A stretch of 64,000 nt of DNA from Octopus vulgaris (taxonomy: Eukaryota). Positions 15,056 to 59,721 of this stretch are shown here, in pieces (positions within the stretch are counted from its first letter, which is position 1; each line of letters begins with the position of its first letter). The notes under the pieces are model-generated. The model saw only the letters and a list, made by a program, of their open reading frames with translations, made no database searches and had not been told where the DNA came from. The translations under genes and the position numbers were made by a program. The stretch is from positions 48,980,001-49,044,000 of the forward strand of contig OX597825.1 of NCBI GenBank assembly GCA_951406725.2, given 5' to 3'.

Positions 15056-15430
15056 ATAAGCTTAAAGCTTATAAGTGATCACCGTGTATTGACTATACAA
15101 AATAGTTAAATATTGGGGCGTATAAGCCCTCGATTGGAAAAATGTGGGTTTAGTGGGTTTCCTGTACATGTGGGAATCGAGTCAACACCTCTGTGTCTTC
15201 ACGAACTCAGATTTCTGTGTTCTTGCGACGAGGAATTTTAGTTCTTAAATCTGAGGGAAAGAGACAAGGTTCGTATAATGATAGCACATTTGTTGCGAAA
15301 ACACAGAGGTGTGATTTCAGGTCCATGCCCATGGAAAATCAACATTTTCCTGTCGAAGGTTTATATGTTCCAAATTTAGACTATTTCGTTTAGTCAAGAC
15401 ATTGTGACCGCTAATAAGCTTTAAGCTTAT
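15056..15430. repeat. Old imperfect fold-back (inverted repeat), ~375 bp
   Basis: ATAAGCTTAAAGCTTAT at the left end versus ATAAGCTTTAAGCTTAT at the right; inner ACACCTCTGTGT / ACACAGAGGTGT; colinear complementarity between them. Confidence 0.8.
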
Positions 15431-15506
15431 TCAAATATCAATAATATTAATTACAGAGTTGTAAAATACACAGCACCGCTTATCAAATCTATCATCGCAG
15501 AAAAAA

Positions 15507-15560
<54 letters not shown>

Positions 15561-15693
15561 CCGTGACCGACCAGGCTATCAGATGTTGCTACACATCGCT
15601 GATCACAGTGCGCTTTGCATTGTTTTAGCGTTCAAATGACGCCACCCCGCTGGCTAAGCGAGCAGGCCAACAGAAGACAGAGTGAGAGAAATT
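15561..15693 (-). mobile_element. SINE family 2, 3' portion
   Basis: Matches 54110-54245 (GTGACCGA.CAGGCTAT.AGATGTTGCTACA...CCACCCCGCTGGCTAA). Confidence 0.8.
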
Positions 15694-15700
15694 TGCGTCG

Positions 15701-15832
15701 AAAGAAATAAGTGAAATACTTACTTATACCCATGGAAGAAGTGAACACTAAGTCATGAGCACAATTATGTGTGCTCATGACTTAGTGATCACTTATTCCA
15801 TGGGTATAAGTAAGTATTTCACTTATTTCTTT
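15701..15832. repeat. Near-perfect DNA hairpin (~63-bp arms) next to a hammerhead motif
   Basis: AAAGAAATAAGTGAAATACTTACTTATACCCATGGAA...CTAAGTCATGAGCACA / TGTGCTCATGACTTAG...TTCCATGGGTATAAGTAAGTATTTCACTTATTTCTTT. Confidence 0.95.
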
Positions 15833-15840
15833 GCCGCATT

Positions 15841-15894
15841 TATCACTGATGAAGGGAAGGTTCTTATGAACTAACTCTGAAATCGGGTCTGATA
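15841..15894 (+). ncRNA. Type I hammerhead ribozyme motif (PLE pseudo-LTR type)
   Basis: Stem I TATCA/TGATA; CTGATGA; stem II AGGG-aa-GGTTC-ttat-GAACT-aa-CTCT; GAAA; minimal stem III; GTC cleavage triplet at 15887-15889. Confidence 0.8.
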
Positions 15895-16041
15895 TGGTAA
15901 TAACGGGATTTTTTAGAAATTTATGTCGGCTTTCTTCGAAACACGGGCTTGTAGTGATAAATTACATGGTTATTGAGGTTGTGTCTATTTTCGGCATATT
16001 TTAGCATTAGAGTTTTTTCTTTTGCGCTTACTTATAAATTG

Positions 16042-16121
<80 letters not shown>

Positions 16122-16209
16122 TATTATTATTATTATTATTTGAGGGCAGATTATTCATAACTTACAGGGAAAAATTCAATTTAGAAATACTAAATCAAAT
16201 TTCACAATA

Positions 16210-16256
<47 letters not shown>

Positions 16257-16539
16257 TAATAAAAAACACCTTCTATCAATTCAAAATGAAGAATTAAATT
16301 ACACCATCTAGAAAATTACATATAATAGAAATTTTAAAATTAAAATAACAATAATATACCGATGATTAAGTAAATTGCAAAATAATAATAAAAACGTATA
16401 TATTTGTTTGGATTTTGTATTATATTGGGATTAATATTTAGCTGTTTTGTTAATATTGTTATTGAATTACTAATAGGGGTCTGCTAGTTGTAGTTGGGTG
16501 ACTTCATGGTAGTTTCTCCATAAGTTTATTTAGTGCATT

Positions 16540-17090
16540 TCCTGACAGTGTTCGAATGTGGGTCTGGAGACTGTGATAAAAAATTTGATGTGAAAAGATT
16601 GCAGCCAACCAAGAAACGCGGCAGATATTCTGTAATTGTCTGGGGAACAATTTGGAGCAATGGTTGATAAGAGCTGGTGGAGTGTGAGGGAAACACAAAC
16701 TCAGATAAATATGAGTCGATATTGCAGAAAGGATGCCTTCCAATCTTCTCCAGAGGTGAAAGGATAAAAGAAGACTCTTTATTTAAGGTAGATTGGGCTC
16801 CTTACCACACGGTTAAAATGATCCAAGGTTTGTTGGATGAGAATGGCATTAAAAAGTTTCCATGGCCAAGCCAGTCTCCAGATATGAAACCCAATGAACA
16901 TCACAGGGACATAATGGACAGGACATTTCATAAAAAGAAAGTATATTCAAACCCAGATCTTTTTTGTTTTGACATTAATGTATGAAACGTGGCAAGAAAT
17001 TCCGCAAGAGAATATTCGTCATCTGGTCAGCAATATGTCTAACAGAGTCCTTGCATTGAGAAATACAAAGAGAATGTCTACTAGATATAA
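16540..17090 (+). mobile_element. Tc1-family (DD34E) transposase 3' fragment
   Basis: NSDKYESIL...FKVDWAPYHT...WPSQSPDMKPNEH with 34 residues between D and E; no TIR recognised. Confidence 0.8.
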
Positions 17091-17249
17091 AATAATCATA
17101 TCAATAAATAATTTGAATGATAATTTCAGATTTAAATAAATTTTAATGATTATATGGATGTCTATTTATTTCTGTCATATTTGTGTAGATACGTACACAT
17201 GCATACATGGAAATACCTACATATTAACATACACACACCCAGGAGCGCA

Positions 17250-17282
<33 letters not shown>

Positions 17283-17309
17283 CTATGTATGTATGTATGT
17301 ATAATCACA

Positions 17310-17775
17310 ACAGAAGAAAACTTCATGGGAAAAGTCTCTTTCCATCCATTACAACCTTCTATGAATACTCGCCCGTCTTATCAAGAGTTCCAGAAGGCAA
17401 TGAAACGTATGAAAACAAGAAAAGCTCCGGAAACTGACAGATTCCCATTTGGCTTACTGCAACATAAAGTACTGGTGCTGCAAAACAAACTCTTCGCCCT
17501 GTTTCTGAAGATGTTGAAGGCACATGAAATCTGAAAGAGGTATATTCAAAAAAGAAAATAGAAAATTCTGTGGAATCTATCCTGGAATATCGTTACTTGC
17601 TGTTGTAAGATATTTGCTTGAATACCCAAGAATCGTTTCCAGTCCATCTCGTAAGGAGTCCCTCAAAAATCCCAATATGGTTTCTGAGCATCCCGTTGAA
17701 CCATCGACATGATCTTCTGAGCCAGTGTATTCCTTTCTTTTCTATGCTCTTGAACAGGCTTTTGACGGTGTACTA
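17310..17775 (+). mobile_element. RTE-type LINE reverse transcriptase fragment
   Basis: PSYQEFQKAMKRMKTRKAPETD, IFKKENRKFCGIYPGISLL, QYGF...TIDMIF, AFDGV. Confidence 0.75.
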
Positions 17776-17789
17776 ATCCGGTGTACTGT

Positions 17790-17975
17790 CTTTTACTTCT
17801 TTCAGTTATTAGACTGCAGCAATTCTGGGATACTGTGCTGAAGAATTTTTAGTCGAATTCATCGGCCCGAGTCTATCGTAGAAGGCACTGGCCCAAGTTA
17901 CCACCCATTGAAAATGAACCTGAAGCCATGTTACTGAGAAGCAAACTTCTTACGACACATCTACAGCTGCGCATA
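17790..17975 (-). mobile_element. SINE family 1, internally deleted degenerate copy
   Basis: TTTTACTTCTTTCAGTTATTAGACTGC tail and CACTGGCCCAAG...GAACC...GCAAACTTCTTAC head match the reverse complement of 26803-27221. Confidence 0.6.
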
Positions 17976-18529
17976 TATTTAAATCAATTACGATAAAATA
18001 TTGCGAAATAAAGAACATGCAAAAATATATTGATCTTGCAGTTATAATATATTACATACTAAAGAATGATATCTGAGTTAAGTATTGTATAAATTATTAT
18101 TGAATATTTTTCTATCATTTATGGCACAGACAACAGTAGTATTCATATGTAATAAAAATGCAAATCATCCAGTCTTTCTTAAATGTACATGCATGTGTGC
18201 CTGTGTGTGTGTGTGTGTTTGTGCATGAGTTTAGAGGAACATATTATCCGGGCGGGCACCGTGGCAGCTCTCAATTATGCTTTAAATTACGGCTAACCGT
18301 ATCAATTAGTATTTATCATCTATGACTAACAGGAGTTTCCACTAACCTTGTAAATTCCTCCGATGTGTAATTCTGTGTTTGCTTCACTTGGTGGTAATAT
18401 CTGGAACGTATATTTGCGATAATTATAACGATAGCGAATATGGAGTCCAGTACATTCTCAGAATCTTCTGTGCTGCTTCGTTAAATGGTCTTTCAACCAA
18501 CTTGGATCGAAGCGAACGGAAAAAGAGGT

Positions 18530-19190
18530 TGTAGAGCGAATGCTAAGTGCTAAAAGTCTGTCTCTCTAAACTTCCATGTCAATTGTCAGGAACTAACTGA
18601 TCGCGTTCTTGGAATATAATTATTTGCTCTCGGACACCCAGCATGGCTTCCGTTCAGGAAACAGTTGCTTTTATACAGCAACTGCAGTATTATAAATGGG
18701 TCAAACGTGGATGTGATATATCTTGATTTTGCAAAGGCTTTCGATAAAGTTGATCATGGGATGAAATGTCACATGTTATAGCGAATTAGTCGGAAAACTG
18801 GGATAGTGGTTACATGACTTCTTAAAAGACAGGAGCTAGACTGTGGAAGCCACAGACGAGACAGTAATAGAGTTTATGGTGGTTCTGTAGGACATGCCGT
18901 CAGTTACACAGACAACCACACTTACTAGCTATGCCAACGACACAAATATAATATAGGTAGTCAAAGAACCTTCCGGTGCTAATCTTCCACACATGTAATT
19001 TCATGCAAGAACATTTCGAGGTTTCTTTCAGCTGGTTTGTGCTAACATGCTGCAACAAAGATACTTTAAACCAAAAGAAGCAGCAACTCGTGAGTCAAGT
19101 ACATTAAGTGATCTGGGGATTGAAATGAGCAACAACGCTTGGTTTCACGTGTATAAAACCAAGATATGGACGAAGCTCAAAACAGGGCAG
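18530..19190 (+). mobile_element. Decayed APE-type LINE RT fragment (CR1/L2/Jockey-like)
   Basis: TQHGFRSGNSC, VDVIYLDFAKAFDKVDHG, WLHDFLKDR, SYANDT. Confidence 0.85.
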
Positions 19191-19224
19191 CAGTGTTGAA
19201 CTCCCCCTTCATGAGGCACTCCCC

Positions 19225-19267
<43 letters not shown>

Positions 19268-19352
19268 TATATATGCGGGGCGCGGTGAATAAACTGGCAT
19301 CTAAATTACACAAAAGTTAAAATGACATTAACATCTCATTTTAGCAGATATA

Positions 19353-21598
19353 TCAGGTCATCCCGTAAGTTCTGTCCGTAAGTTCTGCAGTTGTTGTGTA
19401 AAGCAACTTCTTTCTGAACGGAAGCCATGCTGGGTATCCGAGAGGAAGGCATTATATTCAAATAACGCGGTCAGTTAATTCCTGACAATGTATTTCATGA
19501 CTTTACTGACATGGAAGTTTAGAGAGACAGGTTTATAACTCTTAGCATTCGCTCTACTACCTCCTTTATGGATAGGATATATTATGTCGTACTTTAACTT
19601 CCGGTTGCGAGGAAGCTTTTGGAAGAGTATTTGTAGTGGTCTTTCAAGAGTCCCTTCGCTTTTCTTCAGGAGGATTTCTGGGAATCCATCAGAGCCAGTG
19701 GCTGAGTTTAAGGTCATTTTCATCAACAGCTGATATTACATCAGATTATTGCGTTTCGATGTTATCGATAATTGCCATCACTTTGTTTAGAGCTGTTGTC
19801 CCACAGAATTCATCGGACATGGCTATTTGCAAGTGTCCCATCGGACACATTTAGCGTTTCACTTAACATCTGAAGTAAACTCTTTTTCAAATCTATCTAT
19901 AGAGGGCTTTATGGTTTAGTTTTAGAATGTTTACAACCCCGGCTACCCTCTCTGTTCTTTCCTTCTCATGACAGTGTTGAGTTCACTTTCAATCTTAAGT
20001 AGCGTTTACTTGAGATATTATTAATTACTATCCTTTAGTGACCACTTGTCGTCTCATTAGAACCTTTCTTGTCGTCTCATTAGAAACTTTCTATCGAGAG
20101 GAACTATGATTTTCTGTCGGTTTGATATTCTCTCTGGAGCAAACTTGCTGCTTATGTTATGCACGATTGTTATAATGTCTTATAGCTTTATGTCAATATC
20201 TTACGTAGACCAACTTAGTTTCATGACCTCTTTTTTTATACCCGTCCAATCTTTATGAAAGTTCAGACTGAAAAGAGTTGAGTGCTTCTAGTAGCCTGCA
20301 TATCTGTTCTCTGTGAACCGTACATGTTAGCTCTATTAAATTATGGTCTGAGATAATCGCCGGTGTCTCCTTAATATTATGGATGAGCGACGCATTATAT
20401 GTGAAGCAAATGTTCAGGACATTTCCACCCCTTGTTGGTGGAACACTATTTCTTCCATAAAGGCCATAAGTGTGATGTCGAGCGCAGACTCTACTTGCTT
20501 CTGTTTATGCAATGGCATGCCTGATACAAGGCGGCTCTCAGGCCATTCAACATTATGGAAGTTGAAGTTTCCTTGAAGAAATATGTGAAGGCTGACAACT
20601 AGATTGTTTTATACTTCTTCCATCTTTTTGAGGCTCATTTCGAATGAGTCCCCATAATTTGGTACATGTATATTGCCATTGCCATAGCGCATTGTCCTGA
20701 TGAAACATCACTCCTTTTCGATTCTTTATTTCTTCAAAGCTTGGTTCAAACGCTCTAATTGCTGACAGTAGACTTGAACATTGATTGTGGCATTAGGTGG
20801 TAACAATTCAAAGTAAATTACTCCTTTGCAATCCCACCAGATGGAGAGAAGAAACTTTTTCCCATAAAGTCTCATTCTCGGTTGTGGTTGAGCTCTTCCC
20901 CCTTTACCAAACCACTGTTTCCAACATTTAACATTTCGATAGGACATCCATTTTTCATCACCAGTCACAAGTCTATCCAAAAAGGGTGAAATGAGTTTGC
21001 GAAAATGGAGAGAAGAGCAGATGTCAACTCAGGATTTGCGGTTGCTTTCGGACACTTCATGAGGCACCCATTTTCCGTGTTTAGGAACCTTTCCAAGTTG
21101 TTGAAGATGACGATGAACAGTTGTATGGTTTGAAGTAAGCTTTATTTCCAGTTCTTCAACTGGTAATGCAGGATTTTCTTCAAGTAATGCCTCAAGGAGC
21201 TTATCATCAAACTCAACTGGACGTCCTGTTCGATCTTCATCTGCAAGACTGAAATCTCCACTTCTGAATTTTGCAAACCATTTTCTGTAAGTTCTTTTAT
21301 TCAAACATTCGTTCCCATAAACTGAGTGTATGCTTCGAGTCGCTTCGGTTGCAGTGTTTCATTTTTGTACTCATAAAGTATTATGTGCCTCAAATGTTTT
21401 TTGGGATACTTCCATGATAGAAAAGGCTTTAATGAAGGAAATTTTAATTCTAATATTGTGTAAAATAATATTTAATTAGTTCAAATGTACACAAATGCAT
21501 AGAAATAATTTTAAATTCCATTAGACATTATAAAATACTATTAAATTTCCTTCAATTTTAAAATGGTCAAATTGGACTGAACTTAGGAAATGACCTGA
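19353..21598 (-). mobile_element. Mariner element bounded by TIRs; 3' half of transposase replaced by a LINE segment
   Basis: TA|TCAGGTCATCCCGTAAGTTCTGTCC versus GGACTGAACTTAGGAAATGACCTGA|TA; transposase ~21415 to ~20685 with KWFAKFRSGDF, WVPHEV, LVTGDEKW and FHQDNA, after which homology stops. Confidence 0.88.
19386..20682 (-). mobile_element. LINE fragment (APE endonuclease end plus RT start), same family as 18530-19190
   Basis: GNFNFHNVEW and SDHNLIE (APE); SATGSDGFPEILLK and PIHKGGSRANAKSYKPVSL (RT); 19386-19555 is homologous to the reverse complement of ~18530-18690. Confidence 0.85.
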
Positions 21599-21657
21599 TA
21601 TATTTATATAAATATGTGTTTATATCTCAAAATAAGCAACAAGGATATCCAAAGGTA

Positions 21658-21746
21658 ATGCAGTACGGTCGTTTCATGCAACTCAATTTAATTGAACAAT
21701 GCAATCATTACATCAATTTAAAATGCAGAGCTATCTTCAGCTGCAC
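21658..21746 (-). ncRNA. Degenerate type I hammerhead ribozyme motif
   Basis: Minus strand: GTGCAG-CTGAAGA-TAGCTC...GAGTTGCAT-GAAAC-GACC-GTA-CTGCAT; stem I pairs well, base of stem II imperfect. Confidence 0.55.
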
Positions 21747-22089
21747 AAAAACATAGAATTTAATTCAACTAGAACAGATGGACACATTCTGGATAATTGC
21801 TTTTTCCTACCTCAATTGAGATAAAAGTTTGGTATATACTCAAAAGTATTCATGAAATTTATGAATACATAGTCTTCTGATTATATGCTATTTAGGTAAT
21901 ATTAGATTACTATAAATGTTGGTAAGCGCAATGTCTTAATTTTTCGGATGGCTTGTATGTAATTGTATAACTGTATTTCTGTATTTGTTTTTTCTGTATT
22001 GTGTGAAGACATCCTGATGGGGGAAGTGACAGTTTTAAAAATATGAAATATACCATATTACTTGGCACGTCTCTATAAGTGTGTGTGTG

Positions 22090-22143
<54 letters not shown>

Positions 22144-22261
22144 TAAATAATGAGGGAGAAAAAGTGAATATTAATTTAATTAATATCAATTTAAAACCAG
22201 TAGCCTAGCATACAAAAATCTGAAAAATCAGAGAAAATTCTAATACATGTGTATATATAAA

Positions 22262-22903
22262 GGCTAAAAAACCACAAACTGGTCAGCCGTATGCTAGAAG
22301 TAGATCCCCTACGATCAAACTACAAAGAAAAGAATGTTCTCTAGGGAAAAATTCAGCGGACACCAGAACAATATACGGGCAAGACAGATGAAAATTATAT
22401 AAAAAACAAGAATTACTTGCAGGACGACGGTTTCGCCTATTAACGAATGAATCACTTACGTAATCTCTGGTCCGTAGGCTCGTCAGTACGATCGTTCCAA
22501 AGATAATATAATTTGTAAATCATTTACTGCAGATTTTGCTTCCGGAATTTTAGCGCGCCAGAACTCAGATATTTGAAATTAACCACAATGTAATCGGTGA
22601 AACTAAGCACATGTCTGTTTTTATACGGAAAACTGGTGGTTAGTTTTACAAATTATATTACCTGTAGAACGATCGTACTGACGAGCTTACGGACGAGGGA
22701 TTTTGTAAGTGATTCATTCATTAACAGAAGAAACCACCAGTCTGGGAGTAATTCTTGTTTTTTATATAATTTTTTTCTGTCTTGCCCACATATTGTTCTG
22801 GTGTCCGCTGAATTTTTCTCTTGAGAACATTCTTTTCTTTGTAGTTTGATCATAGGTGATCTACTTCTAGCATACGGCTGACCACTTAGTAGTTTCTTAG
22901 CTC
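22262..22903. mobile_element. Fold-back element (arms ~22262-22519 and ~22645-22903); probable inverted pair of PLE pseudo-LTRs
   Basis: TGGTCAGCCGTATGCTAGAAGTAGATC / GATCTACTTCTAGCATACGGCTGACCA with colinear arms; each arm holds a hammerhead-like motif; microsatellite flanks. Confidence 0.85.
22418..22490 (-). ncRNA. Hammerhead ribozyme motif in the left arm (more degenerate mirror at 22674-22746, + strand)
   Basis: CGTA-CTGACGA-GCCTA...TAGGC-GAAAC-CGTC-GTC-cTGC; stem II perfect 5 bp, stem I off by one nucleotide. Confidence 0.65.
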
Positions 22904-22908
22904 TTTAA

Positions 22909-22976
<68 letters not shown>

Positions 22977-22977
22977 A

Positions 22978-23009
<32 letters not shown>

Positions 23010-23011
23010 GG

Positions 23012-23429
23012 GGTAAAATATGAAAAATCAACGAAAATGCATATTGCAGATAGAAAAAGGCTATTTATGACAGGTAGTGACAAATATATACATTTAGATT
23101 GACTGAGGTAGTAATACGAGTCATAAAGGTCATTATTATGAGATGATTATAAGATGATAATAATAATAAAGTAAGAGAAGAAAACGAACCAACTGGTTTA
23201 CGCGAAGGCTATTTATCGTTTTTGATGAATAGCCTTCGCGTAAACCAATCGGTTTGTTTTGTTCTCTTAATTTATTATTATTATCATCTTATAATCATCT
23301 CATGATAATGACCTTTATGACTCGTATTACTACCTCAGTCAATCTAAATGTATATATTTGTCACTACCTGTCATAAATAGCCTTTTTCTATCTGCAATAT
23401 GCATTTTCGTCGATTTTTCATATTTTACC
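23012..23429. repeat. Near-perfect 418-bp palindrome with a 6-nt loop at 23218-23223
   Basis: Arms of ~206 bp are reverse complements with only scattered mismatches; lies between (TA)n runs. Confidence 0.97.
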
Positions 23430-23475
23430 TAACATTTCCACGTGTATTTTATATTTTCTTTTCGTAACATATTTC

Positions 23476-23554
<79 letters not shown>

Positions 23555-23615
23555 CACACATACATACATACATACATACATACATACATACATACATACA
23601 TACATACATACATAC

Positions 23616-23659
<44 letters not shown>

Positions 23660-23777
23660 TGTTATATTTCGGAATGGTCACATTGCCAGTTTAGTCAATA
23701 GAAACACACACACTATATATTTGGTGTTATTTTGCTTCAGTGTTATTTAATTTTTACATTAATCTTAATCTTATTTC

Positions 23778-23822
23778 GGCCAGAGTTCTTTCGTCACACT
23801 CCTGTGACCGCATCAGTGGTCC
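23778..23822 (-). ncRNA. Minimal hammerhead ribozyme motif in the inverted pseudo-LTR
   Basis: GGACCA-CTGATGC-G-GTCAC-AGGAGT-GTGAC-GAAA-GAAC-TC-TGGCC; core variant at position 9; absent from the right arm. Confidence 0.65.
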
Positions 23823-24020
23823 TTTGTTTTCTTCTCTTCTTTCTTATTTGTGTCTCTCCTTACTAACCGTCAGCCATTTTGTATTTCTATTGTATCTCTA
23901 TGTGCGTCTACGTTTATTTAGTGTGTGTGTGGGGGATGCCTGTAATATTTGTATTTTCTGTTTATATATGTTCATGTAATATGTATTTTGTTTTTGTTGT
24001 TTTTGTTTATTCTTATTTTG

Positions 24021-24875
24021 ATGGCAGACCTCGTCAGAATAATGAGAAATGTGTCACGCATGTGCGAGCCCACAGAGTTAAAGAGACACATACAATATTT
24101 CATTCACCGCATGCAGTTCTCAGGTTACAGCCATAAAGAAAGGATCAGAGTATACAAAGGAGCATGAAGAAATTTGATAATATATTATGTAATGATAGGA
24201 ATGGGATTTGCCCACTCTATAGGAACAAGTCATGGAACACTATAGAAAGGAGAAAAAAGAAAATAGGGAAGGCCAACTCTTGGTATGATAGCCATAAATA
24301 CCAGAGTGTCATGTTCGTTGACACAACCCCTGGAGGTGAACTGGCGTACCGCTTTAGAAGGACCCTAGACAAACTTAAGCTAAGAATTAAGGTTGTTGAA
24401 AAGCCAGGCAACCCTATCAAATCTATAATTGGTAGAACCTATCCTTTTAGTAGAACCCTCTGTACGGATAAGTACTGTATGTAGATTTAGCCCACAAACA
24501 AACTGTAAAGCCAGAAATGTAGTCTATAGTATAAGATGTATAGAGGGACGACGCAGTAACAAGACAACGACATACGTAGGGGAAACGGCAAGAAGCATAG
24601 GAGAGCGGGTAAATGTACATTGGAGACAACTCAAGGAAGGTAAAAGCTCATCGATTCTGTACCAACACGCCGAACAGGAACACGGGGGATCAATCAATAA
24701 CATAGAAATTAAAATATTGTCCACACATAGAACAGATGCAACAATTAGACAAATTACAGAAGCTACACACATAATAGAAAATAAACCTAGCCTGAATAGA
24801 AAACTAGAATGGAGCACTAGCGCACACCAAGACGATAGAGGATCCCGAAAAAATAATAAATACACAGATAAATAA
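24021..24875 (+). pseudogene. PLE ORF 3' part (RT thumb/linker plus GIY-YIG endonuclease), two frameshifts
   Basis: RMQFSGYS, PLYRNKSW, NVVYSIRC...YVGETARSIGERVNVH, ILYQHAEQEH, RQITEATHI...PSLNRKLEW. Confidence 0.9.
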
Positions 24876-25406
24876 ACAAATAGAAATAAATAACTATATA
24901 TATATATATTTTTTTCGATTCGATTTATTATTATTATTAGTAGTATTGTTGTTATACATACATACATACAAGCATATGTAATGATAATAATAAGTGGATG
25001 TAAACACATGAACAAAATAAGAATAAACAAAAACAACAAAAACAAAATACATATTACATGAACATATATAAACAGAAGATACAAATATTAAAGGCATCCC
25101 CCCCACATACACACACTAAATAAACATAGACGCACATAGAGATACAATAGAAATACAAAATGGCTGACGGTTAGTAAGGAGAGACACAAATAAGAAAGAA
25201 GAGAAGAAAACAAAGGACCACTTTCTGGCCGAAATAAGATTAAGATTAATGTAAAAAATAAATAACACTGAAGAAAAATAACACCAAATATATAGTGCGT
25301 GTGTTTTTATTGGCTAAACTGGCAATATGACCATTCCGAAATATAACAATATCTGTTTCAACACACGACTTCACATAAAAAATCTTGCACAACAAATATT
25401 TAAACG

Positions 25407-25465
<59 letters not shown>

Positions 25466-25859
25466 GTATATGTATCACTCTCATATGTCTATCCACACAT
25501 ATGTTATATCTAGGGAGATTAAGTCTGTTTGAATGCCTCATTTATTGATTACACTCACCGGGTCATTTTCCACTCAGTTTCTTTTTCTAAAATTTTCGTT
25601 GGTTCTTGCAGTTTCTTTAATAGTTGCTGAATCTGTACATTATCAGAGCTGTTTCCCTTCTATTTATTTGTTCGCTTGTGTGCATGTATGTTCGTTCCTG
25701 TACAGTTGTATAGACATGTGTATATATGCATGCATGTATGTGTGTGCGCATATGCATATGTATACATGTGTACGTTTGTATGAATGCATTCTGCGCATTC
25801 ATGAATAATATGAACATGTGAGCGTGTTAATCAATAAGGCATTGAAACAGAAGGTCTCT

Positions 25860-25970
25860 CCCCAGCCATAGGCTATAGTTGAAGACACTTGCCCAAGGCG
25901 CCACGCAGTCGGAACCCAGAACCATGTGTTTGGTAACGAAGCTACGTAACACACAGCCACTCCTGCACCC
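25860..25970 (-). mobile_element. SINE family 1 head
   Basis: Reverse complement GGTGCAGGAGTGGCTGTGTGTTACGTAGCTTC...CTTGGGCAAGTGTCTTC. Confidence 0.8.
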
Positions 25971-26285
25971 ATACACACACACACACACACACACAAATAT
26001 ATATATATACATACATATATATATATGTATGCATAAATATAGATAAATAGATAGATAGATTTATGTATGAATATGTATGTATGTATGTGTGTGTATAAAT
26101 ATTCAGTTATGTGTCTGTGTATATTCAGGTATGTATACGTCTATATGTCTGTCTGTATTCAGGTATGCATATGTGCATGTATACGTGTGTGTGTATGTAT
26201 TCAGGTATGTATATGTGTATGTATACTTGTTTGTGTCAGTGAATATAATTATACATATATATGCATGTATTTATGTATGTCTCTA

Positions 26286-26665: not shown

Positions 26666-26697
26666 CGTCGATAATCTTTATAAACATATATATATCC

Positions 26698-26739
<42 letters not shown>

Positions 26740-26802
26740 TCGATAATCTTTATACACATATATATATATATCCATATGTATATATATAATCATATATATA
26801 TA

Positions 26803-27221: not shown

Positions 27222-27228
27222 TATATTC

Positions 27229-37681: not shown

Positions 37682-38187
37682 TGATTGGATGTGTTATCAT
37701 GTACATTGTTTTGTCTTGGTATAAAAGATTGGCTACAGCAAATATTCTGTTCAATACCACAGATTTGCTTGACAGTTGTTTGATCATAACCAGTTGACCA
37801 TGTCTCTTAGTGACTGACGATATGTGCATCTCTGATCACGAGCAGAAGTAGTGGAGAAGCATCACAGCCGTGTGTTGAAAGGAAGTCTTGGAGGTTTGGA
37901 AAGTTCACCTTTGGAAACATGGGTGGTTCATTCAACATTCTTAAACAATCCCTAATTAGGGAGCTTTTGAGTAGGATGGGCTACTCGACCAGAAGAAAAT
38001 TGTAATTTGGCCCCACCTGCAATGTCATGCGCTGTTTATCTTGATATGAGATCACCATGTCGCGCATATATGGTTGTGATGCATGTGCTTGGTGTACCCT
38101 TATCAGACAGTTAGTCATGATGGGTATACTGGGCTTCGTATATTTTACCCCAGTGTCACTTTGATGACATGCACTGCTCTCTCACTC
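37682..38187 (+). mobile_element. Second copy of the (AAT)n-associated non-coding retroposon
   Basis: Colinear with 13631-14136; lacks the first ~45 nt of that copy. Confidence 0.85.
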
Positions 38188-38191
38188 AATG

Positions 38192-38265
<74 letters not shown>

Positions 38266-50845: not shown

Positions 50846-51012
50846 AGGTGCAGGAGTGCTTTTGTGGTAAGAAGCTTGCTTCCCAACCATATCCTTCCGG
50901 ATTTAGTCCCGCTCTGTGGCATCTTAGACGAGTATGTTTTTTTACAGTAGCCTAGGGCCGACCAAAGCTGGTGACTGGATTTGGTAGACGGAAACTGAAA
51001 GAAGCTCGTCGT
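50846..51012 (+). mobile_element. SINE family 1, 5' half
   Basis: GGTGCAGGAGTGCTTTTGTGGTAAGAAGCTTG...GGATTTGGTAGACGGAAACTGAAAGAAGC. Confidence 0.85.
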
Positions 51013-51372
51013 TTATATACATCGTTGTTATTATGCAAAAGTGTCGTAAGTTCATAACGTTGCTTTTTCAGAAAACTAAAATATAGTTTCTGCTCAACAA
51101 TAATACTTTGTTGGGTGCATAAAATCGTAACTTCATGCATGTATGATATTTTCAGTCAGAAATATCTTTGCCAAACTGTTGTGTGTGGAACTTATTACAC
51201 TTTTGAAAAATGCTAACTCATTGTACTACACTTTGACAATTTTTATCTGAAGCAGCTGGAGATACGATAGTTTTCCCAAAAGAACCGGCTAGTGCAAGCA
51301 AAATTAAATACTGAAAGAAAAAAGACGCATTTGGCCAAAATTGGACATACGACCATTTAACATAATAGCAAC

Positions 51373-51447
<75 letters not shown>

Positions 51448-51497
51448 AAATAAATGAAAGAATGGAGTCAAACGACGATTTAACAAAATTCCTTTAT

Positions 51498-51578
51498 TCT
51501 CGACATATGTTTCGAAGACTGCATATTCTTAATTCCGAAGGAATAAAGGGTGCATTATGCTGCCTTCACATCAGGAAA
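51498..51578 (-). ncRNA. Type I hammerhead ribozyme, left-arm copy
   Basis: Reverse complement of 53761-53841 with one difference in stem II. Confidence 0.8.
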
Positions 51579-52236
51579 GACAAGGAACTTATGTCAGCAC
51601 CATGACGAACAAAAACGTTTAGATGACTGCCCACACGGTGTCCATAGTGATACTGAGTGTTTCTTTAAAATATTCCGTTATAAGCAGTGACGTCAAAATT
51701 GGTTGGATGGAGAAGATTCTAAAAAGTTCAAGAGTTCAAAAATGGTTGGAAGGGGAAAGTTCTAAGAATAGGAAGGTGACAGAGTGCAAGTCGTATGTAT
51801 GGGGATGCGTTGTTGTTTGCTTTTGCTAAAGAGATTGAGTGCCTATGTGTGTGTATGTATATAACTGTATTCGTGTCTATGTGTGTGTGTGTGTGTGTGC
51901 GTTATTGTGTTTGTGGGGAGATAAATGCCAAATGCATCTAGTGGTGAAGTGACAGGTTTGTGTCTGTGTGTTTGATTGTGCTTATGATACAGAGAGGGAG
52001 AGGGAGAGGGGGAGTAGTAGCCCTACATGTAACGGAGTATAAAAAATATATGCTTCTCAGGATAAGAAAACTAATAACAATAGAAATAGTGAGAATAATG
52101 ATTTCAGCTCTAACAACGTCGGCACCACTATACTTAAGAAAAATAATTTACGGACCAGGGGAGGCAATCGACAACCAACCCCAATTTTCCAGCACAGAAA
52201 TAAATATTCCCTTTAATGTAACTGAACAATTCTTAG

Positions 52237-53220
52237 TCCACAAAGAACTATATCTGGTTTGTCATACCTTTCGGAAAACAAATCAAGTCAAACCTTCCTT
52301 TGCAATTCCGTGAAGCCGTGGCTAGGAACTTTCCCAGGAATTCTAGGTATTACTCTACTATCAATTCACATAAGGTAAGGATTGCATTCTCTAACACTAG
52401 AAATCTATCGCAAATTATTGCCTCCCATAACAAGCTGCTAAACAAGGATTCTTCACCCGGGAGTTACGACACTATTCTTACCAATTCCAACCAAACATAC
52501 AATAATAATAATAGAAATAGTATTGATAATAGCAACATTAATAACAACGTTGGCATTAACAATGGTAATATTATTAATAATATTAGTCGGATTATTAACA
52601 GTGGTAGTGTTAGTGGTAACAACGACAGCATTTCTAATAACAGTGATAGTATTGATGATAACAACGGCAGCATTTCTATAGCCAGGGATATTGCCGGCGA
52701 TAGTACAATTAATAATAATAACAATAATATGAATAGTATAGTGGTCAGTGCTAGCAATGATATTAACACCAATCATAACAATAAAAACTCCGTCTTAGTC
52801 TCGGAGGTAAACCCTAACAGATTAAAGTTCTTGTCCAGTAATTCCAAAATTAGAAATTCCATTTACCAGTGTAAAATTTCTTCTGGTACCGGTGTCTTCT
52901 TCTATATTGGGGCGACTACTTCTAAATTATCCCAGAGGATTTCCAATCATTATTCAACTTTCCGAGATAAGAGGAAACAACAAAGTACAGGACTAAGTAA
53001 ATTAGTTTGGCGTCTTAAGGACAGCAATATAACTTTCAAGCTGGAATGGTCCATATTGTCTGTATCCTTTCCTTTTGATAAGGGCAGAAAATCTTGTGGC
53101 GTCTGTAATTCCGAGCTTTTCTATATACTTTTCGCCAAATTCCCTTTGGTAAACACAATGGTAGAAAAATCCTATAGGTGCGTGCACTGGCAGAAACACA
53201 CCTTCCACTCATATGAATGA
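52237..53220 (+). CDS. PLE ORF 3' part: RT thumb end, Asn-rich linker, GIY-YIG endonuclease (Naiad/Chlamys-like by motif); lacks RT core
   Basis: YIWFVIPF...NFP...KVRIAFSNTRNLSQIIASHNK; NSIYQC...FYIGATT...RISNHYSTF...STGLSKLVWRLK...WSIL...CGVCNSE...CVH; uninterrupted from 52237 to the stop. Confidence 0.88.
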   Translation, partial: STKNYIWFVIPFGKQIKSNLPLQFREAVARNFPRNSRYYSTINSHKVRIAFSNTRNLSQIIASHNKLLNKDSSPGSYDTILTNSNQTYNNNNRNSIDNSNINNNVGINNGNIINNISRIINSGSVSGNNDSISNNSDSIDDNNGSISIARDIAGDSTINNNNNNMNSIVVSASNDINTNHNNKNSVLVSEVNPNRLKFLSSNSKIRNSIYQCKISSGTGVFFYIGATTSKLSQRISNHYSTFRDKRKQQSTGLSKLVWRLKDSNITFKLEWSILSVSFPFDKGRKSCGVCNSELFYILFAKFPLVNTMVEKSYRCVHWQKHTFHSYE

Positions 53221-53760
53221 TGATTAATATAGATAACCTCCTTGAATTTAATAATTTGGTTCCACTTCTACAACACCACCATAGACAAATTTTTTTATAC
53301 TCCGTTACATGTAGGCTACTACCAAATTCGTTGGGGTATGTTTTACCATTGTCTCTCTACCTCTCTCTCTCTCTCCCTCTCTCTATCATAAGCACAATCA
53401 AACACACAGACACAAACCTGTCACTTCACCACTAAATGTATTTGGCATTTATCTCCCCACATACACAATCACGCTCACACACACACACACTTAGACACGA
53501 ATACAGTTATATACATACACACATATATGCACATCCCCATACATACGACTTGCACTCTGTCACCTTCCTATTCTTAGAACTTTCCCCTTCCAACCATTTT
53601 TGAACTCTTGAACTTTTTAGAATCTTCTCCATCCAACCAATTTTGACGTCACTGCTTATAACGGAATATTTTAAAGAAACACTCATTATCACTATGGACT
53701 CCGTGTGGGCAGTCATCTAAACGTTTTTGTTCGTCATGGTGCTGACATAAGTTCCTTGTC

Positions 53761-53841
53761 TTTCCTGATGTGAAGGCGGCATAATGCACCCTTTATTCCT
53801 TCGGAATTAAGAATATGCAGTCTTCGAAACATATGTCGAGA
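53761..53841 (+). ncRNA. Type I hammerhead ribozyme, right-arm copy
   Basis: Stem I TTTC/GAGA; CTGATGT; long stem II GAAGGCGGCATA/TATGCAGTCTTC; GAAAC-ATAT-GTC. Confidence 0.8.
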
Positions 53842-54036
53842 ATAAAGGAATTTTGTTAAATCGTCGTTCGACTCCATTCTTTCATTTATTTATAGTAAAA
53901 AAAACACACACATTTCCACACGTAAGCACGTGATTTCTGCCCTTGGCATGTAGCTTCAACCGTGTTTTCTGACGTGAATTTGCTACCCGGGTATCGGTTA
54001 ACTGAATTATCCATACTAGGATAATTCATTCAGCTA

Positions 54037-54100
<64 letters not shown>

Positions 54101-54109
54101 CCATGATTA

Positions 54110-54343
54110 TTGTGACCGATCAGGCTATTAGATGTTGCTACATATCGCTGGTCACAATGCGCTTCGCATTGTTTTAGCCTTCAAATGACACCACCCCGCT
54201 GGCTAAACGAGCACGCCAACAGAAGAAAGAGCGAAAGAAAGTTGTGGCGGAAGAGTACAACAAGGATCGCCACCACCCCCTGCCTGAGCCTCGTGGAGCT
54301 TTAGATGCTTTCGCGCAATAAACACTCACAACGCCCGGTCTGG
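54110..54343 (-). mobile_element. SINE family 2 lacking its tRNA-like 5' end, fused to a mariner
   Basis: Matches 28010-28105 and 15561-15693; joins mariner sequence at ...CCCGGTCTGG|TGCAACTTTGG. Confidence 0.85.
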
Positions 54344-55052
54344 TGCAACTTTGGCTTCGGGAAGTGCCGTAGAGCTTCGTTGGCGTCCAACCACTGTGCT
54401 GAGCGTCGCCGGTTGTCGTAAAGAATCCACTTTTCATCGCAAGTCACAATCCGGTCGAGAAACGAGTCGTTCTGGTTGCGTAAAAGAAGGGAAGACGACA
54501 CTTCAAAACAGCATTGCTTTTGGTTGTCGTTCAATTCGTGCGGCACCCATGTCTCAAGTATTTTTGTTTGTCCAATATCTTTCAAGTGGCTTGAAATTGT
54601 CGTATACGTTACGTCTAATCCAGAAGCAAGCTTTCGAACAGTTGTGCGTAGATTGGCTTCGACTAAGGCTCTTAGTTGATCGTTTTCAACATCCGATGGC
54701 CGACCACTACGCTTATCCTCTTCAAGACTCTCGTCACCGCTACGAAATTTCTTGAACCACCGTTGTGCTGTACATTCAGTAGTGGTTCCTGGACGAAACG
54801 CATCGTTGATATCGCAAGCTGTTTCAGCAGCTTTTCGGCCTAGCTTGAACTGGAATATTGTACGAATTTGCTTTTTGTCCATGCTGTATTCAACGTTCCG
54901 TAAAAGTGGCGTAATTATTCAAAAAGAAAAAGGGCCAAAAACGGGATTTAAACTGATATATAAAGTCAAAGTAATTTAGCGAAAATTAATTTGAAAATAC
55001 TTAATTTAAAACCAAAATTTTAAATTCTGCAAGAACTTTCTTGACAACCTAA
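54340..55052 (-). mobile_element. Mariner element, 5' half
   Basis: End GCAAGAACTTTCTTGACAACCTAA|TA; [13 protein letters not shown]...[11 protein letters not shown]...WVPHEL...[13 protein letters not shown]...PKPKLHQ, then truncated. Confidence 0.92.
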
Positions 55053-55075
55053 TACACTACACTATATCCCTCCAT

Positions 55076-55106
<31 letters not shown>

Positions 55107-56525
55107 CATACATCTGTGCGTGCATGCGTGTGTAAATGTGTGTGCATTTCGATAAAATGATCCGTTAATTTATTAGATTGATAAAAATATGTATTCTTAT
55201 TTATCCCGAAATATTTAATATGTTTAAATTTTCAATGATTAATTTTGGCAAATTAGAATCCTTTATATACACATTGGTACGCTGATGAATTGAAAGATTC
55301 TACATGAATTTTAATTAGTTCATAAAGAAGGAATAATTTCTAAACTTAAGTTAATATCAAAATCAATATCAGAAACAATATTATAACTGGTATACAACTG
55401 AAGATGACAATGTGAAAATATTGTTCTTGAATTCATTTTCATATCTTTAATAGAAAAGTAATCAACGTAGAATTTAATTTATGTGGTTTATAGATGACTG
55501 CCAAACTATACAATAGAGAAACATGAACTTTAATTCTCCCTTTTGTTTTACTTGATATGTATGTGCACGCATATGTCAGTATGTATGTTGTTTTTGGGTA
55601 TGGATCTGTATGCGAGCATGTATATGTGCATGTGTATGTGTGTGTGTATGTGAGTGTATGTGCGTGTGTACGTGTGTATGTCTGTGTGTGTGATACCACG
55701 AATTAAATTTTGAAGTAAGTGACATATGAAAAATTTCACATATCATAATAGTGAAAGGAAATAATTGTTTTGTCGAAAGGAAGTATTTTCTTTATAATTT
55801 AATTTAACATTTTTGAAATTACATTCGTGTATAATATTTCATACGCTACATATAGACCACAAGTCGTAATCTGATCTTTGAAAAGTCGTATAATTTCTGT
55901 GAAATGGCGTCGAATACTATTTTATCAAATTTCTGATAGAAAAAGGGTCTGTCATGCAATTAGAAAAATACATTGGAATACTTACAAATAATGTTAGAGT
56001 CAGGCTGCAGTTTTATAAAGCAAACGGCATTTTGTACTTGTACCTTTTAAAGTTGTTCTCATAATCAAATATGTTGTCACTGGAACTTCACTGACACTTT
56101 CAACAAAACTTATATGTTAGCCGAAACGAACTTCATGTGTTGTCTATGCACACATATACGATATGTGTGCGTATGTGTGTGTGCATGTGTGTGTATGTGT
56201 GTGTGTCTGTGTGCGTGTGCGTATGAGTGTGTGTGTGTGTGTGTAGCAGAGTTTAAAGCCCCAGCTTTCGACTTTCCCAGAGGAAGGACACTGCATTGTC
56301 CAAAATTGTGATTTTCCACTCCTTCTGCAAGTTCTTTGTACTCTATCGATTTTCCTACATAATATAAATCATTCCACAGGTCAACAGCAACCACTTCAAG
56401 TACCTGTTTGGCCATATAAATGTGTGCATCTATATTCGTATATGTGTGTATACATGTATATACATATATACATATATATGTGTGTGCGTATATATGTGTG
56501 TATATATATTTAGACATATGTATAA

Positions 56526-56575
<50 letters not shown>

Positions 56576-56791
56576 TATGACAGGTAATGGTGTAAGTATG
56601 ACCCAAAGGTGCCAGGTAATGCTGAGTAAGTGCTATGGATAGACCATAGTTAAGCTCCAGGTTCGGTGATTTTCCGAATAAGGAGTCCAACGTAGGTCAT
56701 ATATCAGCGTGTGTATATATAGAAAAATTTTTTTCAGAATGAGATAACAAAACCAAGGCCGAGAAGATTTTAGAACATTTATAAATAGAAG

Positions 56792-56841
56792 GTCTGACAT
56801 CTGTTTCCAGGATATTTATAGTATATCCCATCATCGGAGAC
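56792..56841 (-). ncRNA. Type I hammerhead ribozyme motif with one core substitution
   Basis: GTCT-CCGATGA-TGGGATAT-ACTATAA-ATATCCTG-GAAAC-AGAT-GTC-AGAC; stems I and II pair fully, U4 is C. Confidence 0.75.
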
Positions 56842-57263
56842 GGTGTTAGAGAAAGGTTAAGCAATACTTAATTCAGATAAGATAGGAAATAGAGAGTGAA
56901 GCAATGAAAATAAATGTGAGATATGCAGGGACATCGCATTTGTAGACTCATTATTTAGGCAGAATGGTATACACATAAGATTCCAATACCTTGTGAGTAA
57001 AATCCAATGGTATCTAAAAATTGGTCATTCCAAGTATAGAGTTTGTACACGGTGCTATTGAATCAAAGATTTTATTTAAAGAGACTTAAAGTAGGGAATG
57101 TATTTGTAAGGTCAAATCGAAAACAGGAAGAGACGAATAAAGAAAAGAGAGAAAAAAAAGAAAAAAAATGGAAGAGAGAAATAAAGAAATGAAAGAAAAC
57201 AAGGAGAGAGATAATAAGGAGACATTTACCAGTTAGTGGTCAGACAAGATAAATTGAAAGATG

Positions 57264-57525
57264 GAATGGGGAGATGAGAGTAATGCATAGAGAAAGGTAT
57301 TAGAATGGGGAGATGAGGGTGATAGCGAGAGAAAGGTATTAGAATGGGGAAATGAGGGTGATAGCGAGAGAAAGGTATTAGAGTGGGGAAATGAGGGTGA
57401 TATAGAGAGAAAGATAAAAGGAATGGGGGTGATAGAGAGAGAGGGAGTGAGTAAAGGAGTGTCATTTATGTAGTGATAGAGAGAGAGGGAGTGAGTAAAG
57501 GAGTGTCATCTATGTAGTGATAGAG
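57264..57525. repeat. Minisatellites in the left arm: ~4 x 39 bp, then 2 x 45 bp
   Basis: Unit GAATGGGGAGATGAGGGTGATAGCGAGAGAAAGGTATTA at 57264, 57303, 57342, 57381; GTGATAGAGAGAGAGGGAGTGAGTAAAGGAGTGTCAT duplicated. Confidence 0.9.
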
Positions 57526-58049
57526 TCTAAGTGATAGGGCAGAGAGAGGGGCAGTAGTATGGAATGAAGATTTTGGAATATAGATTAGGTGGTTGGACAG
57601 GTCAGTGCTTACTAAGAGAAGAAAGTAGATATGTGAATACGTATACATATCTATATATTAGGCATGTATATATATATTTATACAGATGTTTATGTATATC
57701 AATATCTACATAGTTAACTCGTAGTCATGTGTGTATGTACACATGCACACCCATATATACTTGTATCTGTATGTATTATCGCCCCTGTATACGCAAGTAT
57801 ACATACATTGCATACATACATTCACACATACACACATACATACATGCACACACACACATACATATACACACACATATGCATGCAAGCATATACACAGGAA
57901 TATAATTAGATGGTTATGATATTCGAGTATGAGTGAGGAATTAGAAAGAGATTAAGAGTTAAAATGTAGATTTATAAGGTTACTGGGATTACCAAAGAGG
58001 TATTGTGGAAATATACTGTATGGTCGTTTAGGCATTTGGATTTGTGGTA

Positions 58050-58430
58050 GAATTTGAATGTGTGAGAAAATCGATGGTTGCATATGCTCAGTGCCTCATT
58101 ATGTTTATTTAGCAGTGCTGGAGTGCTGTGCTTTAATATGTGAAGTGCCTCCTTCAGGCAAGGTTTGCAGGTTGAACGTTGACCAAGGTAGGGAAGACCC
58201 GAGTCCAGTATGGACCATGATAGAGTATAGGGTATATTTGTATTTTTGAGATGATGTATGTGGTTGGCGAATGTTGTAGATTTACTATGTTTATCGTATC
58301 TAAAATAATGGAGGTGAGCGTCATATCATTGCTTAAAATATTTGTTTGATCCTATGTACATGGCTGTAAGAGTTGTGTAATAGATTAAGGACAGTGCATT
58401 TGTAAAGTACATTATATCTTCTGCAATTCT
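58050..58430 (-). pseudogene. PLE GIY-YIG endonuclease remnant (Naiad/Chlamys-like)
   Basis: DIMY...AMYIGSNKYFKQ*YDAH...KSTTFANHIHHLKNTNIPYTLSWSIL...TCKPCLKEALHIL...LLNKHNEALSICNHR. Confidence 0.8.
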
Positions 58431-59649
58431 TCTATTTCTGAACACAGTCCCCAAAACTCACCTAATTGTAATTGCCGTCCTGGGATCATCTGCCCGTTAC
58501 AAACCCATTGCAGAAGATATAATGTAATTTACGAATGCACTGTCCTGAATCTATTTCACAACTCTAAAGCACTGCTAAATAAACATGATGAGGCACTAAG
58601 CATATGCAACCACCACTGTTTTCACACATTCAAACTCTACCACAAATCCAAACGCCTAAACGACCATACAGTATATTTCAACAATACCCGTTAGATGATC
58701 CCAATAATTTTATAAATCTATATTTTAACTCTTAATACTTATCTAATTCCTCACTCATACTCGAATATCACAGCCATCTAATTATATTCGTGTGTATATG
58801 CGTGCATGTATATGTGCGTGTATATGTTTGTAAGTGCATGTATGTATGTATATGTGTATGTGTGAATGTATGTATGTATGCAAGATATGTACACCTGCGT
58901 AAATAGGGGCGATAATACATAGAGATACACGTATATATGGGTGTGCATATGCACATATACATATGACTACGAGTTGTATATATAGATATTTATATGTATA
59001 AACATCTGTATATATGTATATATATATGTACTAAGTACTGATCTGTCCAACCCCCTAATCTATATTCCTAAATTCTTCTTTCCATACTTCTACCCCTCTC
59101 TCTGCCCCATCACGTAGACTCTATCATTACATAACTGACACTCCTTAACTTTATATACCTCTGACTCTATCACCCCATCCCTCCGATCTTTTTACACTCT
59201 AATACCGTTCTCTTTCAATCACTCTCGTCTCCTCATTCCTACTTTCAAATTATCTTGACTGTCTACTAACTGGTAAACTTTCCCTTATTATCTCCGTCCT
59301 TGGTTTTTCTTTTTTCTTTCTTTTCTTTATTCTTTTCTTCCTTTTTTCTCTTTTTTCTTCTATTTTTACTCTTTTCTTTATTTTCGATTTGATCTTACAA
59401 ATACATTCCCTACTTTTAGGTCACTTTATACCATTCTGTCTAAATAATGGATCTACAAATGCAAAATCCCTGTATATCTCACATCTATTTTCATGCATCC
59501 ACTTCACTCTCTATTTCGTATCATATCTAAATTAACTATTGCTTCACCATCTTCTCACACCGTATCCTGGAAACAGCTGTGAGATCTTCCATTTAAAAAT
59601 GTCCTATAATCTTGTCAGCCTTGGTTTTTTATTTCACTCTCAATATATT

Positions 59650-59721
<72 letters not shown>

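Follow-up and report, generated by a model that had tools for sequence, protein, structure and literature searches.

Seven inverted repeats in an Octopus vulgaris contig resemble head-to-head insertions of truncated Penelope-like elements

Insertions of Penelope-like elements (PLEs) are described, in the sections of the literature covered here, as carrying a 5'-truncated copy in inverted orientation at their 5' end and a 30–40 bp tail that is often one-ended, with a bias toward (TA)n (Craig et al. 2021, PMC8557442). The same source lists Hydra-1_Obim, which prefers (TA)n, gives DKT as a mark of the Hydra clade, describes non-autonomous PLE derivatives for Chlamys, and still calls the mechanism of the inverted copies an open question. 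Pairs of hammerhead ribozymes on opposite strands, 100–700 bp apart, have been regarded as probably related to truncated PLEs (Cervera and de la Pena 2014, PMC4209133). Inverted and solo pseudo long terminal repeats (pseudo-LTRs) and asparagine-rich inserts are known, and palindromes at inverted junctions have been read as products of self-priming (Arkhipova et al. 2013, PMC3846280). In vitro, an anole PLE cleaves and extends both strands, prefers AT-rich targets, starts reverse transcription at two sites that bracket the tail, is predicted to act as a dimer, and inserts without hammerhead activity (Frangieh et al. 2024, PMC11167929). Tandem retrozymes derived from PLE pseudo-LTRs have also been reported (bioRxiv 10.64898/2026.07.22.740005). 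Here we describe seven inverted repeats, labelled A to G, in a 64,000-nucleotide (nt) stretch of Octopus vulgaris DNA (assembly GCA_951406725.2, contig OX597825.1, positions 48,980,001–49,044,000, forward strand), which we call the window and whose own numbering is used throughout. We read them, with a probability of roughly 0.6, as two-primer PLE insertions in which two shortened cDNAs were joined head-to-head within a TA microsatellite.

The window has 34.5% GC and is rich in microsatellites and in relics of Tc1/mariner and long interspersed nuclear elements (LINEs). A preliminary description, made from the sequence alone, had proposed seven inverted repeats, and all are present close to where it had placed them, with arms that are 3–18% diverged, indels between arms of up to 247 nt (G), and spacers between 6 nt (B, D) and 1227 nt (F) in length (Table 1). 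In all seven, one arm is extended by 50–216 nt and then meets a (TA)n run of at least eight units. By comparison, a run of this kind occurs within 210 nt, on a given side, at 8% of window positions, and it is 1060–2527 nt away from H and I, two inverted repeats taken as controls. All seven can be described as an inverted 5'-truncated copy, the polarity being set by an open reading frame (ORF) or a hammerhead in B, C, E, F, and G. The tail is one-sided in 7/7 elements and is 49–144 nt long (about 200 in B). In C to G the tail-less end lies at TA or AC/TA repeats, in A at (AAT)n, and in B at another repeat, so that the proposed common layout stands at the tail end and breaks at the tail-less flank of B, a repeat fragment rather than a microsatellite. 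The tails had also been called unique, which does not apply to C, where the tail is family sequence, or to D, whose tail has a second copy in the window; these two are the elements for which it is shown to be repeated sequence. When the 3' parts of the seven elements were compared using eight queries, cross-element matches spanned only 13–31 nt, in line with the suggestion that the sequences are mutually unrelated, apart from F and G, which are related at the protein level (33% identity).

Table 1. Positions of the seven inverted repeats and their parts in the window
Element	Feature	Position	Strand	Remarks
A	Arms	15050-15200 / 15297-15430		18.3% substitutions
A	Tail-less arm	15050..15200	-	beside (AAT)n 14885-15049
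A	Second arm and ~80-nt tail	15297..15509	+	arm to ~15430; tail ends at (TA)n 15510
B	Arms	15701-15763 / 15770-15832		3.2% substitutions; loop 6 nt
B	Near-perfect hairpin	15701..15832	.	arms 63 nt, loop 6 nt
B	Type I hammerhead-like motif	15846..15889	+	outside hairpin; element continues to (TA)n at 16042
C	Arms	22248-22519 / 22645-22917		11.8% substitutions; spacer 125 nt
C	Tail, 106 nt	22142..22247	-	family sequence; ends at (TA)n 22090-22140
C	Tail-bearing arm	22248..22519	-
C	Type I hammerhead	22422..22486	-	decayed in window copy
C	Spacer	22520..22644	+	part of tail-less copy
C	Tail-less arm	22645..22917	+	ends in (AC)n(TA)n
D	Arms	23012-23217 / 23224-23429		3.9% substitutions; loop 6 nt
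D	Near-perfect hairpin	23012..23429	.	arms 206 nt, loop 6 nt
D	Tail, 49 nt	23430..23478	+	ends at (TA)n
D	Second copy of tail	9105..9147	+	35/43 letters alike; TA run at end again
E	Arms	23656-24020 / 25013-25352		3.3% substitutions; spacer 992 nt
E	Tail-less inverted arm	23656..24020	-	decayed hammerhead-like motif 23816-23783
E	3' end of PLE ORF	24015..24875	+	CX4CXXC linker, GIY-YIG; frameshifted
E	Sense arm and 54-nt tail	25013..25406	+	arm to 25352; hammerhead core deleted; tail to (TA)n
F	Arms	51445-52052 / 53280-53894		3.1% substitutions; spacer 1227 nt
F	Tail-less inverted arm	51445..52052	-	hammerhead 51574-51502
F	Hydra-type GIY-YIG ORF relic	52237..53220	+	asparagine-rich insert
F	Sense arm and 144-nt tail	53280..54038	+	arm to 53894; hammerhead 53765-53837, long helix II; tail to (TA)n
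G	Arms	56714-58427 / 58507-59659		13.4% substitutions; spacer 79 nt
G	Probable tail, 143 nt	56571..56713	-	beside (TA)n; weak match to Hydra tail hairpin
G	Arm with Hydra-type GIY-YIG relic	56714..58427	-	hammerhead 56837-56796
G	Spacer and tail-less arm	58428..59651	+	CNCR...CPL coding frame on +; several deletions; ends at (TA)n 59652

Three of the elements had been said to contain GIY-YIG sequence, and we find PLE coding relics in three, E, F, and G. The spacer of E is 81–100% identical to residues 604–800 of P0001, an Octopus vulgaris protein with a reverse transcriptase (RT) domain and the sole protein match for E, and the reading continues through a GIY-YIG-like frame. The F nuclease matches Pfam GIY-YIG weakly, under the cut-off (E 0.0033), and gave no match in a word-index protein search; a full HMMER search returned 2478 relatives at E≤0.001. 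F and G match the full-length Hydra-type proteins P0045 and P0110 at E values of 1e-17 to 1e-6. These long relatives carry RT motifs and DKT, and P0045 also RWR. By eye, the CNCR...CPL stretch of G and the nuclease of F fit the Hydra rows of the alignment of Craig et al. 2021, and by these matches and motifs F and G fit the Hydra clade, as does their (TA)n target. They depart from that clade in hammerheads that fail E=5 in a Hydra hammerhead model and in RT motifs lost to truncation: the RT core is gone from E, F, and G, and the RWK/DKT region is absent in F and G. A reading of F and G as Neptune elements was rejected because the Craig alignment pointed to Hydra. F also has an in-frame asparagine-rich insert (52480–52790), 5' of the nuclease, as in Adineta PLEs and in the relative P0002. 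Elsewhere in the window, 2239–2594 (minus) holds a further PLE RT relic, ~50% identical to P0001, and a frame at 61667–61945 (plus) resembles another PLE RT by eye.

The correspondence with published inverted insertions of endonuclease-containing PLEs (PMC8557442, PMC3846280, in the parts covered) is close. Both have a 5'-truncated copy with an inverted truncated neighbour, a one-ended tail, a (TA)n bias, a hammerhead near the 3' end (here in B, F, G, and the majority sequence of the C family), and, in F, an asparagine-rich insert in the ORF. The octopus elements differ in their tails, longer than the published 30–40 bp; four of them are ORF-less; and direct pseudo-LTR or partial tandem copies were found in none of the seven. 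We consider it very probable that C, E, F, and G derive from PLEs.

Five elements had been reported to contain or abut a type I hammerhead with its 3' side pointing outward. All five (B, C, E, F, and G) are indeed oriented outward; B, F, and G have a clear motif, that of C and E has decayed, and for A and D there is no support. A strict hammerhead descriptor found four sites in the window, all in B, F (twice), and G, whereas 40 shuffled sequences averaged 0.15 sites each. The motifs of F and G have a long helix II, a helix III of 2–3 bp, and one core substitution, and by eye E retains helix II and a near-complete core. Covariance searches had been suggested as a check. Rfam finds no hammerhead anywhere in the window at E≤1; of four elements scanned locally with Hammerhead_1, F (15.9 bits) and C (13.5 bits) score weakly and G and B not at all; and no element reaches the gathering score of 34. 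R1, a model we built from 34 Hydra hammerheads, recovered among the seven elements B only (E 2.8). Its best match in the window (9285–9332, E 0.005) lies within a Tc1 copy, has no helix II, and was rejected. That copy is a near-complete Tc1 element in a TA run (9150–10441) with 40-bp terminal repeats, whose 5' part mimics a hammerhead core; a second, inverted Tc1 5' fragment lies at 6600–7006.

Element C could be followed beyond the window. It is partially present in 20 of the 24 public runs listed, under four organism codes, with no more than 28% of its words in any run; RNA data sets were absent from that list, which does not bear on expression. Contigs from four runs (815–1380 per run) align to 22142–22684 at 80% likeness, so that C is a multi-copy family in public contigs from four coded organisms. 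Among the 32 contig pieces listed (4526 more exist), four, one from each of the four runs, bridge the junction of tail and arm with at least 31 letters on each side, and three bridge the junction of spacer and right arm (22644/22645); none bridges the window's own axis at 22519/22520 with 31 letters on each side. Fifteen of 16 joints are shown, each from one contig per run and joint. Eight of the 15 switch strand, and one of these (22478/22681) is the natural run from spacer to arm. The remaining seven fold-back joints fall at seven distinct places, one of them common to two runs. Four of the 15 are short and were left without a reading, and the tandem-type signal consists of a single 38-nt joint that goes back. 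Majority letters of the family at 22418, 22423, 22424, and 22427, the same in all four runs, restore by eye a hammerhead with a 3-bp helix III, a GUC site, and a 5-bp helix I. The axis of the C family is thus variable, and the tail is part of the element.

These joints bear on the reading of the ORF-less hairpins as miniature inverted-repeat transposable elements (MITEs) of DNA transposons, fold-back elements, or fixed-axis palindromes that favour TA runs. Asking whether fold-back axes vary between copies had been proposed as a check; run for C, it makes a fixed self-copying palindrome or a MITE unlikely for this element, because the joints vary, and a self-propagating fold-back class is not supported in its fixed-axis form. 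The elements share with MITEs and fold-back DNA transposons that they are short, non-coding inverted repeats; D can be read as terminal repeats with TA close on both sides, A has no PLE mark beyond its layout, and Tc1/mariner copies with TA ends are common in the window. They differ in the variable axis and one-sided family tail of C, and in the hammerhead, which in B lies outside the hairpin; no clean target-site duplication is seen, the element ends lying within microsatellites, where one could not be read. The fixed ends and size with terminal inverted repeats that mark MITEs fail in C, where the family runs past one repeat only. The sequence outside the D repeat has a second copy beside a different TA run, and there is a gradation of layout from the hairpins to E, F, and G. 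We regard this reading of the ORF-less hairpins as very unlikely. Fold-back artefacts of reads or assembly are highly improbable: no run listed contains more than 28% of C's words, yet arms that differ by several per cent and by long indels argue against read fold-back, the tails are one-sided, and the fold-back joints occur in independent public runs.

Three of the C joints are long skips, 22200>22549 (in two runs), 22260>22542, and 22422>22550. In each the inverted copy is cut at a different place and joined to a long copy that starts, at 22542–22550, close to where that of the window does. Contig depth declines sharply on going from tail to axis, with a rise at 22541–22559, although summed contig depth does not equal copy number. 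C may therefore have a defined 5' end near 22545–22550, as a solo pseudo-LTR or as a short non-autonomous unit. Depth also drops about fourfold at 22408–22426, near the hammerhead cleavage site; this step, for which a mapping effect of mismatches in the window copy or cleavage-defined 5' ends could account, carries no weight here.

A defined 5' end is what would be expected if C, and perhaps B and D, were a non-autonomous, hammerhead-bearing unit some 0.48 kb long that stems from a PLE pseudo-LTR, like a monomeric non-LTR retrozyme, and that is transcribed by itself, inserted by the PLE protein in trans, and often found as head-to-head pairs. Three joints and the window copy begin the long copy at nearly one place, C has no coding match in six frames against 151 PLE proteins, and such derivatives have been published, again in the parts covered (Chlamys, PMC8557442; retrozymes, bioRxiv 10.64898/2026.07.22.740005). 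A fixed 5' end would, however, also be expected from an autonomous PLE transcribed from its pseudo-LTR, if reverse transcription starts at an internal site near the pseudo-LTR end, as may be extrapolated from the anole work (PMC11167929). Hammerheads lie about 75–550 nt past the Hydra nuclease, which makes the 225 ORF-less nt upstream of C's ordinary, and one family contig (X1 record 8) carries 520 unaligned letters upstream. Published non-LTR retrozymes (PMC7229834; bioRxiv 10.64898/2026.07.22.740005) are, like these elements, short and non-coding, with a type I hammerhead and a link to PLE pseudo-LTRs. In the parts covered they are head-to-tail tandems with circular RNAs, whereas the elements here are head-to-head pairs, and head-to-tail tandem units of them, each with a hammerhead, are not seen in the window. 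We consider such an origin for C, and perhaps for B and D, unlikely. For C taken by itself, a fixed-5'-end hammerhead retroelement of about 0.48 kb, present in several octopus-like genomes and inserted head-to-head by a Penelope-type protein, is likewise improbable. The idea of a fold-back class survives in a weaker form, as a short linear unit that has a defined 5' end and that a PLE mobilises.

The spacers distinguish between ways of making a head-to-head pair. In E and F the spacer belongs to the tail-bearing copy; in C, judged by the contigs, and in G, judged by the coding frame, it belongs to the tail-less one. Mixed polarity is as expected from two independently stopped cDNAs, and the C and G cases favour two separately primed cDNAs over a simple snap-back, in which a first cDNA of PLE origin folds and copies itself (self-priming, PMC3846280, in the parts covered). 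The 6-nt loops of B and D are compatible with a snap-back or with two cDNAs that each ran off the same fixed 5' end; six letters at the E axis are compatible with both arm and ORF, and inverted-junction palindromes were so read in that source. Snap-back of a tail-bearing cDNA cannot, however, account for C and G, where the tail-less copy extends further 5', and since a snap-back needs a second primer for the tail it becomes a variant of the two-primer model. We judge snap-back rather improbable, a little below the non-autonomous unit.

In the two-primer reading, each element would have arisen once. A PLE protein would nick both strands of a TA microsatellite, and two cDNAs would be primed from two start sites near the 3' end of the element, one with the tail and one without. 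Each would stop early or at the template end, and the two would then be joined head-to-head. In the ORF-less hairpins both cDNAs may have stopped early or run off the 5' end of a short template. The hairpins would be dead ends, and the hammerhead would travel with the PLE 3' region as a passenger. By analogy with the anole protein, the same steps as in vitro may have made these copies, and A, B, and D would belong to the series.

In D, the second copy of the tail scores 54, against a shuffled maximum of 28.5 ± 3.2 and a best of 40 in 100 shuffles; no second copy of the tails of A, B, C, E, F, or G was found at the window's 90 TA-run edges. Recurrence at a second TA run makes the D tail a repeated sequence, which is unexpected for a MITE. 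At the D axis, 23217–23187 (minus) may hold a broken hammerhead relic, with a 6-bp and a 4-bp helix, Hydra-like spacing, and a broken core. The descriptor for it was designed after seeing D and also matches three other non-microsatellite places, and R1 misses the relic, which is a possible lead only. No metagenome contig matched a 24-letter pattern from D. The left end of B adjoins a fragment (15561–15700) of another repeat that recurs at 54055–54254 and that we take to be a short interspersed nuclear element. In A, neither the descriptor nor the Hydra hammerhead model supports a hammerhead. We think B and D probably PLE-derived, and for A the balance tips only slightly that way. The gene-free hairpins are likely the shortest PLE cases and not a new element class. 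Their earlier interpretation as extreme PLE truncation products is supported in C by the variable joints, family tail, and restored hammerhead, and is plausible for B, with its hammerhead and TA end, and for D, whose tail recurs at another TA run.

Schistosoma hammerhead pairs (PMC4209133) resemble C in having two hammerheads on opposite strands 100–700 bp apart; axes, tails, and flanks, which we examined here, are not treated in the parts of that paper covered. Hydra-type loci in metagenomes offer a wider comparison, for which we used the best 80 of 344 (L001–L080); some are near-duplicates, so the counts are not independent. A sense hammerhead lies 3' of the nuclease in 38 of the 56 of these loci with at least 300 nt downstream. 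One locus, L057, has the complete layout of TA, arm, ORF, arm, tail, and TA. From 35 hammerhead loci, three too short to score, a GCTC...GAGCAC hairpin starting 40–68 nt past the cleavage site was found in 20 of 32, against a background of 35 in 1547 windows, and six of the 12 hairpin-less loci end in a microsatellite 22–52 nt past the hammerhead. These sequences suggest that Hydra-type loci have two classes of 3' end, with the hairpin lying within the tail, mostly 40–80 nt past the hammerhead. Several copies without the hairpin stop just short of its place, which makes it a candidate signal for the RT start sites. At L045 (1128–1346) two hammerheads stand tail-to-tail in a near-perfect inverted repeat, a polarity opposite to the usual one that may be an assembly fold-back.

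Several observations weigh against the two-primer reading. A has no hammerhead and is flanked by (AAT)n, and the D relic escaped R1, whose best window match was itself false (Tc1). Neither A, B, nor D, any more than C, has a coding match; six 12-letter D words are absent from the supplement of Craig et al. 2021; and no ORF linked to C was seen in the family contigs. Two random truncations would rarely be expected to leave 6-nt loops, as in B and D, and the three C joints entering at 22542–22550 amount to non-random truncation. Each C joint is one contig per run at 80% likeness, with head-to-head and tail-to-tail orientation unstated. C and G are old (12–13%), so that a tail could have been lost later from the copy that now lacks it. 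Finally, an inverted repeat surrounds the nuclease in only five of the 80 metagenome loci, though short assemblies may hide more.

A wider inverted-repeat scan of the window returned H, I, and pairs of a dispersed repeat without the layout of A to G. H, a LINE RT part duplicated in inverted orientation (18521–18720 and 19349–19567, 13% diverged), has its TA run within the spacer, a layout unlike that of a PLE, and I consists of two Tc1 copies; both were excluded from the series for their layout. A direct repeat of 520 bp and 91% identity occupies 13631–14150 and 37682–38201. The motif CACAYG, picked post hoc, occurs within 25 nt of the tail start in four of the seven elements (C, E, F, and G), compared with a rate of 0.015 per 25 nt in the window as a whole, D has CCACG there, and the motif is reminiscent of the AC-rich start region of the anole PLE.

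The PLE architecture that the preliminary description had called established is in print (Craig et al. 2021, PMC8557442; Cervera and de la Pena 2014, PMC4209133, in the parts covered), and the elements are largely explained by published PLE biology, with the defined 5' end in family C as a modest open point. We found no dedicated paper on ORF-less PLE palindromes, or on octopus PLE hammerheads beyond Hydra-1_Obim, in a search that lay outside subscription papers and Dfam/Repbase entries. A repeat study of O. vulgaris used MiteFinderII and lists MITE families, and its main text, as far as covered, makes no mention of ribozymes (PMC13282606). For annotation, short cephalopod hairpins that MITE finders would call may be PLE ends. 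For mechanism, short insertions record the start and stop of both cDNAs, and were C truly a unit of about 0.48 kb, its junction polarity and the conserved tail hairpin would allow two-primer reverse transcription by a PLE dimer to be read from the genome. The series is useful as a test bed and not as a new system: counted genome-wide, the polarity of spacers, the 5' ends, and the limits of the tails would discriminate two-primer insertion from snap-back and show whether hammerhead cleavage sets the template ends.

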